Part shown: positions 1-6,000 of the stretch, in pieces
Position numbering within the stretch: the first letter of the stretch is position 1
Layout of the letters: every line of letters begins with the position of its first letter
From: Escherichia coli
Lineage (GTDB): Bacteria; Pseudomonadota; Gammaproteobacteria; Enterobacterales; Enterobacteriaceae
Length of the DNA stretch: 64,000 nt
Strand: one strand, 5' to 3'
Assembly: GCF_030013205.1 (NCBI RefSeq)
Contig: NZ_CP122648.1
Position numbers: made by a program

Positions 1-3000
1 AGGTTACGCAGTGAAACCGATCGCCGGTCGCTGTGGCAGTAACATCGACCTCGTCAGCCATCATGAAGAGGTGCTGGACAAAACCAGCGGTAAATTTGCC
101 GAGCAGAAAAACATCTATCAGCAACTGTGGTGTTTGCCGAAAGTGGACGGTAAATACATTCAGGTATGTACCTTCACCGTTGGCGGCAACTACGGTGGGA
201 CGTGTTTGCGCGGTGATGAATCACTGGTCATTAAAAAAGAGAGTGATATTGAACCGTTAATTGTGGTGAAAGAGTAATACATGTTGTAGCAACCCTGCAC
301 TGATTATGAAGAATAATCAGTGCAGGGATTAATCAAAATATTCAATATTTATATATTCCAATATTTATTCATTTCATATGTGAATGTATTAACCAGTGGA
401 ATACCTGTGTTTTGATTATTTCTAAAGGTTTTGAATGAATGCTTATTATCTGATACACAAGAAATAACACTCTTTTTATCGTTAAAAAATGATATTTCAC
501 TTTGCCCACGCCGTTAAAGTCACTGATAATGCGTCCGTTCGTAAATTCAAAATGGCGTAATCTAATATATGCTAAATTTATTTGTTGGCCTTGATATATA
601 CACAGGGCTTTTGTTATTACTTGCTCTGGCATTTGTGTTGTTCTACGAAGCAATCAATGGTTTTCATGACACGGCGAATGCGGTGGCAACCGTTATTTAT
701 ACTCGTGCCATGCAGCCACAGCTTGCCGTGGTGATGGCGGCATTTTTTAACTTTTTTGGCGTATTGCTAGGCGGACTTAGCGTTGCCTATGCCATTGTCC
801 ATATGTTGCCAACCGATTTGTTGCTGAATATGGGGTCAACTCACGGCCTGGCGATGGTCTTTTCCATGCTGCTGGCGGCGATTATCTGGAACCTGGGAAC
901 GTGGTTCTTTGGTTTACCGGCCTCCAGTTCGCATACCTTGATTGGTGCGATTATCGGCATCGGTTTAACCAACGCGCTGTTAACCGGCTCATCGGTGATG
1001 GATGCGTTAAACCTGCGTGAAGTGACCAAAATTTTCTCCTCGCTGATTGTTTCCCCTATCGTCGGCCTGGTCATTGCGGGAGGCCTGATATTCCTGCTGC
1101 GCCGCTACTGGAGCGGGACGAAAAAGCGTGACCGTATTCACCGCATTCCGGAAGATCGCAAAAAGAAAAAAGGCAAACGTAAGCCACCATTCTGGACGCG
1201 TATTGCGCTGATTGTTTCCGCTGCGGGCGTGGCGTTTTCGCACGGCGCGAACGACGGGCAGAAAGGGATCGGCCTGGTGATGCTGGTACTGGTGGGGATT
1301 GCCCCTGCTGGCTTCGTCGTCAATATGAATGCGTCCGGCTATGAAATTACCCGTACCCGCGATGCCGTCACCAACTTCGAACACTACCTGCAACAGCATC
1401 CTGAACTGCCGCAGAAGTTGATTGCGATGGAACCTCCATTGCCTGCGGCATCGACTGATGGTACGCAAGTAACGGAGTTTCACTGTCATCCGGCAAATAC
1501 CTTTGATGCGATTGCGTGCGTTAAAACGATGCTGCCAGGCAATATGGAAAGTTACGAGCCGTTAAGCGTGAGTCAGCGCAGCCAGCTGCGCCGCATTATG
1601 CTGTGCATCTCTGATACCTCCGCGAAGCTGGCGAAACTGCCAGGCGTCAGTAAAGAAGACCAGAACCTGCTGAAAAAACTGCGCAGCGATATGTTAAGCA
1701 CCATTGAGTACGCTCCGGTGTGGATCATCATGGCAGTAGCACTGGCGCTCGGCATTGGCACCATGATTGGCTGGCGTCGTGTAGCGATGACCATCGGTGA
1801 GAAGATTGGTAAGCGCGGCATGACGTATGCGCAAGGCATGGCGGCACAAATGACGGCGGCAGTGTCTATCGGCCTTGCCAGTTATATTGGGATGCCCGTC
1901 TCCACAACACACGTCCTCTCGTCTGCGGTAGCAGGGACGATGGTGGTGGACGGCGGTGGGTTACAGCGTAAAACGGTAACCAGCATCCTGATGGCGTGGG
2001 TGTTTACTTTACCGGCGGCGATTTTTCTTTCTGGTGGGTTGTACTGGATAGCATTGCAGTTGATTTAACCTTCCTGAAAATGCCCGGTCCTGGCGATCGG
2101 GCATTTCCATTTTTGACTAGTGATAACCACGCGCGGTCATAAAATCCGTAATCGCTTTTTCTGCATCAACCAGCACCTTTTCCAGTGGCTGATTAGCATC
2201 GATATCAACCAGTTGTGCACCGCCAAAGGTTAACTGTGGCGTTATGGCTATCTTCCTTTCCAGCGATTCTCTTTTGTGGTCAGGCTTACGCGCGCAGGCC
2301 ACGTCCAGGGAGACATTGAGTTTGATGACCAGATCAGGTTTATGGCTCGCCATCCAGTGAAACGCTTTACGTTCCTGGCTTGCCAGCCATGAGACAAACC
2401 GGCCGCCTTCAACGTTAGGCGGGAACACTGTACCATCGTAAGCGCCAGGAATTTGGTCCTGAGGATAACGGTCGGTTAGAACAATTAACCCGCGACGACG
2501 ACAGGCAAGCATATGACGAAAGCGCAGTAAGCGACGGGCGACAAACGCTGTAATTACCAGCGCCGGAACAGGGCCAGGCAATTTTTTTGCTGTTTTTACC
2601 TGATTTCGTTCAATTGTTTTATGTAAGGATTTTCCCATCAACGGTAATTTTGTCACTGCACGACCGACATTTCCGGCCTGTTTTCCTAAATGAACTCTTT
2701 CGGCAGCACCATATTTTTCGACAACGGTAATAAGATGTTCACACACCGTTGACTTGCCTGAACCATCGCTACCAATAACGGCAATTAATGGAGGTGTTAT
2801 TGACTGCATGAATATATCCTTTAATTTAAATATCCATTAAAAATATTTATTTGGTTAATATGTTTTTATGAAAGCGTAATTCAGGTCAATGTCACAATTA
2901 ACCATTGTCACAATAAGGTTGAACGGATATTCTGAGCACGGACCACGTAATATTCAATACATTATTTGCTGCCGGGTTTTTCGTGAATCAACGTAATATG

Positions 3001-6000
3001 TCAATAATTAATTCCACGCCAGTGCGTGTTATTGCCATTGTAGGATGTGATGGTTCAGGTAAATCGACCCTCACGGCAAGCCTGGTAAATGAACTGGCAG
3101 CAACAATGCCAACAGAACACATTTATCTCGGGCAATCGTCCGGGCGAATTGGCGAATGGATTTCACAGCTCCCTGTTATTGGCGCACCTTTTGGGCGTTA
3201 TTTGCGAAGTAAAGCGGCACATGTGCACGAAAAGCCCTTAACACCGCCTGGCAATATTACTGCGCTGGTTATCTATCTGCTTTCCTGCTGGCGGGCGTAC
3301 AAGTTTCGCAAAATGTTGTGTAAAAGCCAGCAAGGCTATCTGCTCATCACCGACCGCTACCCGCAGGTTGAAGTGCCGGGTTTTCGCTTTGATGGCCCGC
3401 AATTGGCAAAAACCACGGGCGGTAACGGCTGGATAAAAATGTTAAGGCAGCGCGAGCTGAAGCTGTACCAATGGATGGCGTCTTATTTGCCCGTATTGTT
3501 GATTCGTCTTGGCATTGATGAACAAACCGCGTTTTCGCGTAAACCTGACCATCAACTGGCGGCGTTACAGGAAAAAATCGCCGTTACGCCGCAACTGACA
3601 TTCAATGGCGCAAAGATCCTTGAACTGGATGGTCGGCAACCAGCCGATGAAATTATGCAAGCGTCACTACGCGCAATTCACGCCGCGCTTTCCTGATCAC
3701 CAAAATGGATAGGGGATGATTTAACGAATGGATGCACTACAAACACAAACTGTTAATAGTACAACCGCGCCGCAGCCCAACTACATTCCGGGGCTGATTG
3801 CGGTGGTCGGGTGTGATGGCACCGGTAAATCCACACTGACCACCGACCTGGTGAAATCGCTGCAACAACACTGGCAAACCGAGCGGCGCTATCTGGGGCT
3901 GCTCTCCGGCGAAGACGGCGACAAAATCAAACGATTGCCGTTGGTTGGCGTCTGGCTCGAACGGCGACTGGCGGCCAAATCCTCGAAAACCCAAAGCATG
4001 AAAACCAAATCTCCAGCGCTATGGGCGGCGGTGATTATGTACTGCTTCTCGCTGCGAAGAATGGCGAATCTACGCAAGGTTCAGCGACTGGCGCAAAGTG
4101 GCGTTCTGGTGGTCAGCGATCGCTTCCCGCAGGCTGAAATTTCGGGCTTTTATTATGACGGACCGGGGATTGGCGTCGAGCGCGCGACCGGGAAAATCAA
4201 CCAATTTCTGGCACAGCGCGAGCGACAGTTATACCAACAAATGGCGCAGTATCGTCCTGAATTAATCATTCGTTTGGGGATTGATATTGATACTGCCATC
4301 TCCCGCAAGCCTGACCATGACTATGCCGAGCTGCAGGACAAAATCGGCGTCATGTCGACGATTGGCTATAACGGCACAAAAATTCTTGAGATTGATTCCA
4401 GAGCGCCCTACAGCGAAGTGCTGGAACAGGCACAGAAGGCGGTTTCTCTGGTTGCCATCGTTTCTGACCGCCGAAGTTTAACTTAAGGCTGGCGGGATAC
4501 TTTTTACTATCAACGATAAGGTCAGGCTGAATTGGCGGGTTTTAACATCAAACATTGGTTTGCAGATGGCGCGTTTCGCACCATTATTCGCAATAGCGCC
4601 TGGTTAGGCTCCAGTAATGTCGTGAGCGCTTTGCTGGGTCTGTTGGCGCTCTCGTGTGCCGGTAAAGGGATGACGCCCGCCATGTTTGGCGTACTGGTGA
4701 TTGTGCAATCGTACGCCAAGTCGATCAGCGATTTTATTAAGTTTCAGACATGGCAGTTGGTGGTGCAGTACGGAACGCCAGCCTTGACCAACAATAATCC
4801 GCAGCAATTTCGCAATGTCGTCTCATTTTCCTTCTCGCTGGATATCGTCAGCGGCGCGGTGGCGATTGTCGGCGGCATTGCCTTACTCCCTTTTCTTTCC
4901 CATTCATTAGGTCTGGATGACCAAAGCTTTTGGCTGGCAGCGCTGTATTGCACGCTCATTCCTTCAATGGCTTCCTCCACGCCGACCGGCATTCTGCGTG
5001 CGGTAGATCGCTTCGACTTAATTGCTGTACAGCAGGCGACGAAACCTTTTCTGCGCGCAGCGGGGAGCGTCGTTGCCTGGTATTTTGACTTTGGTTTTGC
5101 GGGTTTTGTTATTGCCTGGTACGCCTCGAATCTTGTTGGCGGCACCATGTACTGGTGGTTTGCCGCACGTGAATTACGCCGCAGAAATATCCATAACGCG
5201 TTCAAATTGAATCTGTTTGAGTCTGCCCGACACATCAAAGGCGCGTGGAGTTTTGTCTGGTCAACCAACATTGCCCATTCCATCTGGTCGGCGCGTAATT
5301 CGTGCAGCACAGTGTTGGTGGGGATCGTGTTAGGACCCGCTGCCGCCGGGTTATTTAAAATCGCCATGACATTCTTCGACGCCGCCGGAACGCCAGCGGG
5401 TTTACTGGGCAAAAGTTTTTACCCAGAGGTGATGCGTTTAGATCCGCGTACCACCAGACCGTGGTTGTTAGGCGTGAAGTCAGGTTTACTGGCGGGCGGA
5501 ATCGGTATTCTGGTGGCGCTCGCGGTGTTGATCGTCGGCAAGCCGCTCATTTCGCTGGTGTTTGGCGTTAAGTATCTCGAAGCGTATGACCTGATTCAGG
5601 TGATGCTGGGCGCAATTGTGATCTCGATGCTGGGCTTCCCTCAGGAGTCATTGCTATTGATGGCGGGAAAACAGCGCGCTTTTCTCGTGGCGCAAACCAT
5701 CGCCTCAATCGGCTACATCGTATTGCTGTTCATGTTCTGTCATCTGTTTGGCGTGCTGGGGGCTGCATTTGCTTACTTCGGTGGGCAATGTCTGGATGTG
5801 GTGTTCTCGCTAATTCCGACCTTAAAGGCATTTTTTCAGCGCCATTCCTTGCTTTATAACTCAGCCGGAGAGAAATCCTGATGATGAGAAAATATTTCCC
5901 GCTTGAGGCGAGCGAGCGTCTATTTGTTGCGATTGAAGAAGATGATGTTGTTGATGCACAGGTCAGTTTGCCGCCGACTATCGCACTAAGTTGTACCACC

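Follow-up and report, generated by a model that had tools for sequence, protein, structure and literature searches.

A 64,000-nucleotide stretch of the Escherichia coli chromosome (the window), whose first 12 kb are 100% identical to O139:H1 pig enterotoxigenic E. coli (ETEC) strains, carries three genes, yghT, yghS and yghR, that encode paralogous P-loop proteins. Comparative analysis indicates that these proteins form a divergent branch of the dTMP-kinase superfamily and are not dTMP kinases, that they descend from an ancient triplication whose members are non-redundant and under purifying selection, and that they are encoded within the E. coli version of a Rhodobacteria-type ceramide (sphingolipid) locus. 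Tentatively, and with slightly more doubt than confidence, we propose that YghT, YghS and YghR are catalytically competent, ATP-dependent phosphotransferases acting on a lipid-linked head group before flipping, most likely by converting ceramide-1-phosphate to a multi-phosphate head group that would be bound by a CHAD-like partner protein. As part of this favored reading, the three kinases, the CHAD-like protein and the flippase YghQ would constitute the head-group module of an enterobacterial-type sphingolipid locus. The genes themselves were known and uncharacterized; new with respect to the searchable literature are the connection with the sphingolipid locus, the ancient subfunctionalization into three, the CHAD-like partner, and the fusions to flippases and family 4 glycosyltransferases (GT4).

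The gene yghT occupies positions 2117..2809 on the minus strand (230 aa, T orthogroup), yghS positions 2983..3696 on the plus strand (237 aa, S orthogroup; first gene of the suggested yghS-to-lptG2 operon) and yghR positions 3728..4486 on the plus strand (252 aa, R orthogroup), and each open reading frame (ORF) coincides exactly with the RefSeq gene. A sequence-only reading of the window had described the products as three tandem paralogous P-loop proteins with shared motifs. Paralogy extends over the full length of the proteins: end-to-end alignment gives 34–35% identity with 55 invariant columns, and even the most distant pair, YghT and YghR, matches far beyond chance (BLASTP, 144 bits, E 4e-47). 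The Walker A motif, of common form GxDGxGKST, lies at residues 13–21 of YghT (window 2747-2773), 21–29 of YghS (GCDGSGKST; 3043-3069) and 28–36 of YghR (GCDGTGKST; 3809-3835). The second shared block is DRYPQ in YghT (residues 113–117; 2459-2473) and YghS (124–128; 3352-3366) and DRFPQ in YghR (131–135; 4118-4132), and the third is ARKPDH in YghT (173–178; 2276-2293) and SRKPDH in YghS (185–190; 3535-3552) and YghR (192–197; 4301-4318). Because yghT is transcribed divergently from yghS and yghR, as that reading also recognized, the paralogy stands but the three genes do not form a simple tandem array. The identity of the sphingolipid cluster, the CHAD-like partner and the antiquity of the triplet had escaped it.

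Thymidylate kinase (TMPK) is always the top match of the three proteins in Pfam and NCBIfam, and all of these matches are below threshold. On TIGR00041, the dTMP kinase equivalog model, YghT, YghS and YghR score 22.6, 25.2 and 31.8 bits against a cut-off of 83.25, whereas the genuine E. coli Tmk (MG1655 b1098) scores 234.3 bits; on PF02223 they score 18–26 bits against a cut-off of 27. A profile built from a family alignment of 136 T, S and R sequences ranks TMPKs first in the PDB (E 4e-6). When this profile was compared with the genuine E. coli Tmk using hhalign, the two aligned over 191 columns with a probability of 93.3%, pairing the P-loops with each other, DRFPQ with DRH, YDGPG with YQGGG, and the RKPDH block with the beginning of the LID. 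Consistent with this alignment, the AlphaFold2 model of YghR (pLDDT 88.7) has a P-loop TMPK fold. The proteins thus share with Tmk both fold and topology, within which lie the GxDGxGK(S/T)T P-loop, a strand 3 followed by a DR(Y/F/H) motif, the YxGG/YDGP loop and the basic residues of a LID-equivalent block. They differ from it in scoring far below the curated cut-offs, in having a longer and strongly cationic acceptor lobe, and in being dispensable, missing from some genomes and part of a lipid locus. The weak scores on curated models, taken together with the profile and hhalign results, argue for a divergent branch of the superfamily, and the small-kinase character suspected from the motifs is borne out. 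The sequence-only reading had named clear homology to a housekeeping NTPase as a ground for doubt; the homology to dTMP kinase is remote (22–32 bits against a cut-off of 83) and touches that point only formally.

The RefSeq product names imply that these proteins are genuine dTMP or other nucleoside monophosphate (NMP) kinases, and the remote TMPK homology, the aromatic residue and arginine kept in the helix that in Tmk binds thymine, and the use of the same name in UniRef could be read in that way. We consider this highly improbable. Besides the low model scores, the housekeeping tmk gene (b1098) lies at a separate locus, and yghTSR is dispensable, being present in 4,743 of 5,426 complete E. 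coli genomes and absent from 683 (~13%). The genomic context consists entirely of lipid and envelope genes, and the acceptor lobe carries a charge of +8 to +14 and is ~15–20 residues longer than in Tmk. The product name “dTMP kinase” given to yghS and yghT by RefSeq/PGAP, despite scores of only 22–25 bits on the equivalog model, is therefore likely an over-annotation that has spread to thousands of genomes.

To place the triplet in a wider context, the family was scanned in one genome per GTDB species, which returned 79 loci. Nearly all loci with adequate flanks hold three copies, each assignable to the T, S or R orthogroup. These orthogroups range over Gamma- and Betaproteobacteria, in hosts that include Enterobacterales, Xanthomonadales, Halioglobus/Haliea, Nitrotoga, Methylotenera, Rhodocyclaceae and one Desulfuromusa metagenome-assembled genome. 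In a neighbor-joining tree each of the three groups separates as a clean bipartition, with mean identities of 57–60% within groups and 35–41% between groups, S and R being closest. The shared motifs hold up in the multiple alignment: in all 136 sequences, G28, D30, G31, G33, K34, D131, R132, P134, Q135, D144, E165, R193, K194, D196, H197 and K205 (YghR numbering) are invariant. Since the catalytic residues are invariant in every sequence, none of T, S and R appears to be a pseudo-enzyme. The ratios of nonsynonymous to synonymous substitution (dN/dS) of yghT, yghS and yghR against four orthologue sets are 0.04–0.15. Together these data point to an old triplication maintained by purifying selection; the inference of a triplicated family was sound, although it reflects separate T, S and R orthogroups and not a recent duplication.

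Group-specific conserved residues concentrate in residues 55–122, which in TMPKs make up the lobe where the phosphate acceptor sits. This lobe is 15–20 residues longer in T, S and R than in Tmk, its helices are cationic and amphipathic, and its mean net charge, from sequence charge counts, is +14 in T, +9 in S and +8 in R compared with -1 in the equivalent part of Tmk. In addition, S and R are co-directional neighbors in 60 of 60 loci, with R after S, a median gap of ~30 nt and overlapping genes in 6 loci. The S and R proteins are probably physically associated.

The genes following yghR in the window were then assigned. The sequence-only reading had observed that the three genes are contiguous with a flippase and lipid genes. 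The adjoining flippase is yghQ (4532..5881, plus strand), which encodes a 449-aa MOP/Wzx-type protein and is cut short by IS5 in K-12. More precisely, the lipid genes belong to the bacterial ceramide pathway. On the minus strand lie spt (9488..10660), encoding serine palmitoyltransferase (NF047599, 595.9 bits against a cut-off of 500), acpR (10660..10908), encoding a specialized acyl carrier protein (RefSeq; PMC9386255), cerR/epi (10940..11854), encoding an NAD-dependent reductase (PMC9386255), and aasR (11851..13575), encoding an acyl-AcpR synthetase of the fatty acyl-AMP ligase type (PMC9386255). These are followed on the plus strand by yghO (13947..15089), encoding a bacterial ceramide synthase (bCerS)-type N-acyltransferase homologous to aca/bCerS (PMC9386255). 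Between the flippase and spt, on the plus strand, are the CHAD-like gene, a gene for a YtfJ-family periplasmic protein with a signal peptide (6713..7276; PF09695, E 2e-60), and lptF2 (7307..8377) and lptG2 (8374..9453), second LptF and LptG paralogues that both exceed their NCBIfam equivalog thresholds. Neither an LptB nor an LptC paralogue was found near lptF2 and lptG2.

This clustering of spt, acpR, aasR, cerR and the gene for a bCerS-type acyltransferase, together with those for a flippase and LptF2/G2, identifies the yghTSR locus, by gene content, as a sphingolipid locus. In E. coli BL21 the genes are ECD_02850-02854; Spt, AcpR and AasR are biochemically active, and yghO has been assigned as the N-acyltransferase (PMC9386255). 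LptF2/G2 has been implicated in sphingolipid export in Caulobacter, and the locus of E. coli UTI89 was drawn alongside in that report (bioRxiv 10.64898/2026.04.12.717747). The cited sphingolipid papers assign no role to YghR, YghS or YghT. These proteins and the CHAD-like protein are the only candidates for head-group chemistry in the E. coli locus.

Partner genes were counted in 81 loci with flanks of up to 10 kb. The CHAD-like gene is the most faithful partner of the kinases (63 loci), followed by Spt (52), AcpR (51), CerR (51), the MOP flippase (47), YtfJ (42) and LptF2/G2 (41). In enteric bacteria the order is T> <S<R<flippase<CHAD-like<YtfJ<LptF2<LptG2, and the ceramide genes flank this block on either side. 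In non-enteric bacteria it is CerS< CerR> Acp> Spt> flippase> ... LpxO-like hydroxylase< R< S< (GT4<) CHAD-like< T> PAP2< PAP2> OMF< RND< RND< MFP<. In these loci one or two genes for PAP2 lipid-phosphate phosphatases almost always come after T, and Lpt gives way to an RND pump. The synteny across 79 loci, the co-occurring PAP2 phosphatases and the fusions to flippases and GT4 described below strengthen a role on a lipid-linked intermediate, in line with the earlier suggestion of a lipid or sugar intermediate.

A gene for a DgkA-type kinase (PF01219, E 4e-32) lies directly downstream of cerS/yghO in 22 of the 29 loci in which cerS is visible (examples are L002:1422-1784 and L019:17361-17720); no such gene follows yghO in E. 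coli. E. coli DgkA phosphorylates ceramide in vitro. The DgkA-type paralogue is a candidate for a dedicated ceramide 1-kinase, and if a hydroxyl kinase for ceramide is already present, the three TMPK-like enzymes are left for other steps.

The CHAD-like gene (5881..6704, plus strand) encodes in most E. coli an intact protein of 274 aa, which has no Pfam or NCBIfam match above cut-off and no sequence match in the PDB. Nearly all public copies are named “hypothetical protein”, and one UniRef entry names CHAD. The AlphaFold model is all-helical (pLDDT 94.9, pTM 0.91). Pfam CHAD (PF05235) matches 11 of 56 family members below threshold (best 20 against 25.6 bits), on both internal repeats, and the invariant residues of the family are Arg, Lys and His, among them R88, K92, H93, R95, H193, R196 and H237. 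We judge that the partner probably belongs to the CHAD fold. CHAD domains are specific polyphosphate-binding modules (PMC6537752).

We also searched exhaustively for more distant relatives. The family profile retrieves 2,896 clusters at 50% identity with E ≤1e-3, and 1,714 with E ≤1e-10. The best 149 representatives comprise 67 single-domain proteins, 65 with an N-terminal extension of >200 aa that resembles a Pol-beta-type nucleotidyltransferase (weak PF14907), and 5 tandem two-domain proteins, among other forms. MOP flippases are fused to the kinase in P0378 and P0389, and a GT4 domain is fused to it in P0324, which links the kinase domain to the glycolipid machinery of the membrane. P0241 is a natural S-R fusion found on five contigs within a complete sphingolipid cluster that also contains T and the CHAD-like gene, and P0242 is a T-(S/R) fusion whose neighbors are genes for a CHAD-like protein, a histidine phosphatase (His_Phos_1) and a flippase resembling YghQ. 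These fusions and their neighborhoods suggest that the irreducible core of the system is at least two kinase domains, a CHAD-like protein and a MOP flippase. In two metagenomic loci, both in Wzx/Wzy clusters, a 4-nt overlap joins the flippase gene to the kinase gene (L085 and L087). A remote family member in a Wzx/Wzy cluster retains GCDGSGKST, DRYPQ, YDGP and RKPGH. The nucleotidyltransferase-kinase fusions (for example L085:8001-9494 and L087:7223-8731) always stand just after a MOP flippase, together with sulfotransferases, GT4 and Wzy.

The repeated fusion, overlap and adjacency with MOP flippases could instead indicate non-catalytic or regulatory NTPases that gate or energize the YghQ flippase or the Lpt2 exporter. 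We regard this as very unlikely. MOP flippases are not known to be ATP-driven, and the fold is that of a small-molecule kinase and not of an ABC or AAA+ protein, ABC_tran matches being at the level of the P-loop only. The DRx clamp arginine and the LID-equivalent RK..DH residues, which are specific to phosphotransfer onto an acceptor, are invariant. Although the lack of an LptB paralogue at the locus speaks for this reading, Caulobacter LptF2G2 uses the housekeeping LptB (bioRxiv 10.64898/2026.04.12.717747).

The closest precedent, by analogy, is polyphosphate kinase 3 (PPK3) of Sulfolobus acidocaldarius, a heteromeric enzyme made of cPPK3 (Saci_2019) and rPPK3 (Saci_2020), two dTMPK paralogues encoded in an operon with a CHAD protein (PMC12995831). 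As in that system, at least two dTMPK-fold paralogues are encoded together here in addition to canonical Tmk, and a CHAD-like protein, itself a probable assignment, is encoded in the neighborhood. A PPK3-like reading would have T, S and R assemble into one hetero-oligomer. Together with the CHAD-like protein, this complex would produce or use up oligo- or polyphosphate in soluble form, and its tie to the lipid genes would be loose, for instance through a role in donating or buffering phosphate. We consider this quite unlikely. The DRx arginine lost in regulatory rPPK3 (PMC12995831) is kept in all three paralogues (D131 and R132 are invariant in 136 of 136 sequences), so that the E. coli system would consist of three paralogues with no pseudo-enzyme subunit. 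PPX, SixA and Pst genes are not among the recurrent families in the 81 loci; one His_Phos_1 gene lies beside the fused member. PPK3 hosts mostly lack PPK1 and PPK2, whereas E. coli already has PPK1, and PPK3 is narrowly distributed according to its authors (PMC12995831). The 136-member profile matches 2plr at E 0.04, no closer than canonical TMPKs, indicating no specific affinity beyond the shared superfamily. Finally, the neighboring genes are those of sphingolipid synthesis, of a MOP flippase and of an exporter, either Lpt or RND with PAP2, and the strict linkage and fusion of the kinases to MOP flippases and GT4 argues for a substrate in the membrane. For these reasons a lipid-linked head group is favored over a soluble PPK3-like product.

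In the favored reading, the inferred order of steps would begin with synthesis of ceramide by AasR, AcpR, Spt, CerR and YghO. Its 1-OH would be phosphorylated by the DgkA-type kinase, or by housekeeping DgkA in E. coli. T and the S-R pair would then carry out TMPK-type phosphoryl transfer from ATP onto a phosphate or other head-group acceptor held in the basic acceptor lobe, giving a head group with several phosphates and a high negative charge on the cytoplasmic side. The oligophosphate would be bound by the CHAD-like protein, YghQ would flip the lipid, and LptB2F2G2 would export it to the outer membrane. The pathway logic resembles that of Caulobacter CpgB, in that soluble cytoplasmic enzymes would turn neutral ceramide into an anionic outer-membrane sphingolipid and the genes lie in an spt locus with a flippase and LptF2/G2.

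This resemblance could also be accommodated if the three proteins were plain hydroxyl kinases and functional analogues of CpgB, each acting on a different hydroxyl of ceramide or of a lipid-linked sugar to give a mono-, bis- or tris-phosphorylated lipid without phosphoanhydrides. We think this unlikely. The proteins carry the DR(Y/F) motif as in TMPK, an enzyme that accepts a phosphate, and not the ERS motif of deoxynucleoside kinases. A dedicated DgkA-type hydroxyl kinase already follows cerS in most of the loci in which cerS is visible, and isolated monophosphates would leave the CHAD-like oligophosphate binder unexplained. Nor do the proteins resemble CpgB itself, which is a DAGK_cat/GGDG-type lipid kinase of unrelated fold (PMC10331486); a CpgB-type ceramide kinase was rejected since YghT, YghS and YghR give no DAGK_cat match and have the P-loop TMPK fold instead. 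The E. coli-type locus has no cpgA-D homologues, and the Caulobacter product is ceramide (di)phosphoglycerate. The Caulobacter head-group genes CC_1152, 1153, 1158, 1159 and 1161 were rejected as relatives because none encodes a P-loop kinase.

The locus is disrupted in laboratory K-12. In MG1655 (3129043-3134823; locus L082), an IS5 element (insH9) replaces the region from the 3′ end of yghQ through aasR, so that K-12 lacks spt, acpR, cerR, aasR and the CHAD-like gene and keeps intact yghO, yghR, yghS and yghT. Owing to this loss, K-12 would be unable to make ceramide. In a K-12 screen, transposon insertions in yghQ, yghR, yghS and yghT were each among 50 vancomycin-resistant mutants, together with mla, waa and opg genes (PMC9278758); resistance of this kind is an envelope phenotype and, as such, counts in favor of the proposal. 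Many single-nucleotide variants (SNVs) in yghQ were reported in chlorhexidine-adapted K-12, where deletion of yghQ shifted the minimum inhibitory concentration only 2-fold (PMC8170033). The SNVs adjoin the IS5 junction and look like read-mapping artefacts, and we gave these findings little weight.

Several observations weigh against multi-phosphorylation of ceramide by the three kinases and the CHAD-like protein. First, the yghQRST phenotype was seen in a K-12 background without spt. If it is real, the enzymes affect the envelope in the absence of ceramide; either the enzymes have acceptors besides ceramide, or the way the strains were built gave rise to a spurious phenotype. Second, in five fully flanked loci T occurs with the CHAD-like gene, GT4, PAP2 and RND and with no Spt within 10 kb. 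Third, distant family members sit in Wzx/Wzy polysaccharide clusters, and thus a sugar or some other head group, not a phosphate, may serve as acceptor. The assignment of the partner protein also has points against it: compared with known CHAD proteins (PF05235; Ricinus CHAD 6qv5, PptA 6rn5 and the C-terminal domain of YgiF), it falls below the Pfam threshold, a Foldseek search of the PDB returned nothing significant, and hhalign against the YgiF CHAD region gave a probability of 0.2%. Moreover, the CHAD-like gene is frameshifted in this very window by a 1-bp deletion (830 nt compared with 831 nt in other strains), leaving two ORFs of 143 and 157 aa. Lastly, an E. coli phosphosphingolipid is not described in the searchable literature.

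A bolder form of the proposal is that the three TMPK-like kinases and the CHAD-like protein synthesize a lipid-anchored oligo- or polyphosphate, such as ceramide di-, tri- or tetraphosphate, which would be flipped by the MOP protein and exported to the surface by Lpt or RND, with periplasmic PAP2 trimming or transferring phosphates. We offer this as speculation that is much more apt to fail than to hold. Multi-phosphate ceramide in any form (pyro-, di-, tri-, bis- or polyphosphate) is not described in the searchable literature. Were the bolder proposal true, the T/S/R family would be the first molecularly identified lipid-phosphate kinases forming pyrophosphate head groups, and the same chemistry might act on other lipid phosphates in ceramide-less K-12. 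A multi-phosphate ceramide would represent a novel class of anionic lipid in the outer membranes of Enterobacterales and of numerous Beta- and Gammaproteobacteria, would extend the exaptation of dTMP kinases and CHAD proteins seen in PPK3 into membrane biology, and would give a function to at least 1,700 protein clusters now labelled “dTMP kinase” or “hypothetical”. The analysis bears on envelope permeability and on polymyxin and vancomycin phenotypes, in addition to correcting a likely over-annotation in RefSeq.

The distribution of the locus indicates that it is common in E. coli. At least 80% of window positions 1-12000 is present in 4,069 of 5,426 complete E. coli genomes; this segment runs from the 3′ end of gss over pitB into the first part of aasR and leaves out the remainder of aasR as well as yghO. 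About three-quarters of complete genomes carry an intact-looking sphingolipid locus, and its lipid product has not been reported. The CHAD-like gene is present in 4,165 of the 5,426, and ~578 genomes have yghTSR without the CHAD-like region.

Other observations concern the neighboring genes and additional assignments that were considered. Halioglobus-type loci have an LptA-like gene accompanying LptF2/G2, and other taxa have the RND/MFP/OMF pump instead. The YtfJ-family protein is constant in the enteric cluster (42 loci) and absent from non-enteric versions. In non-enteric loci (L059-L061, L066, L041, L042 and L046 among others), an LpxO-like Asp/Arg beta-hydroxylase, a PEMT-like methyltransferase, DUF2147 and GT4 recur by the kinases, which suggests further lipid decoration in those taxa. 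An ABC or LptB-like ATPase was rejected as an identity for the three proteins, as matches are at the P-loop level only and the fold is that of TMPK; anti-phage defense (PADLOC) was rejected because matches were likewise confined to the P-loop, with E >1e-4. The adjacency of pitB was also rejected as a link to phosphate, as this arrangement is seen only in Escherichia and its nearest relatives (11 of the 81 loci).

The arrangement of the genes offers some indication of how they are transcribed. From yghS to lptG2 the intergenic gaps are 31, 45, 0, 8 and 30 nt, plus one 4-nt overlap, and these short distances and the absence of convincing terminators suggest a single yghS-to-lptG2 operon, divergent from yghT across an AT-rich spacer (2810..2982). 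This spacer contains a sigma-70-like site at 2905-2933 on the plus strand. In K-12, binding of H-NS to the yghT-yghS region and 3-fold induction of yghS by SlyA have been reported (PMC5797941). Between the convergent genes pitB and yghT, a hairpin at 2078..2106 with a GC-rich 12-bp stem and T-runs is likely a bidirectional terminator.

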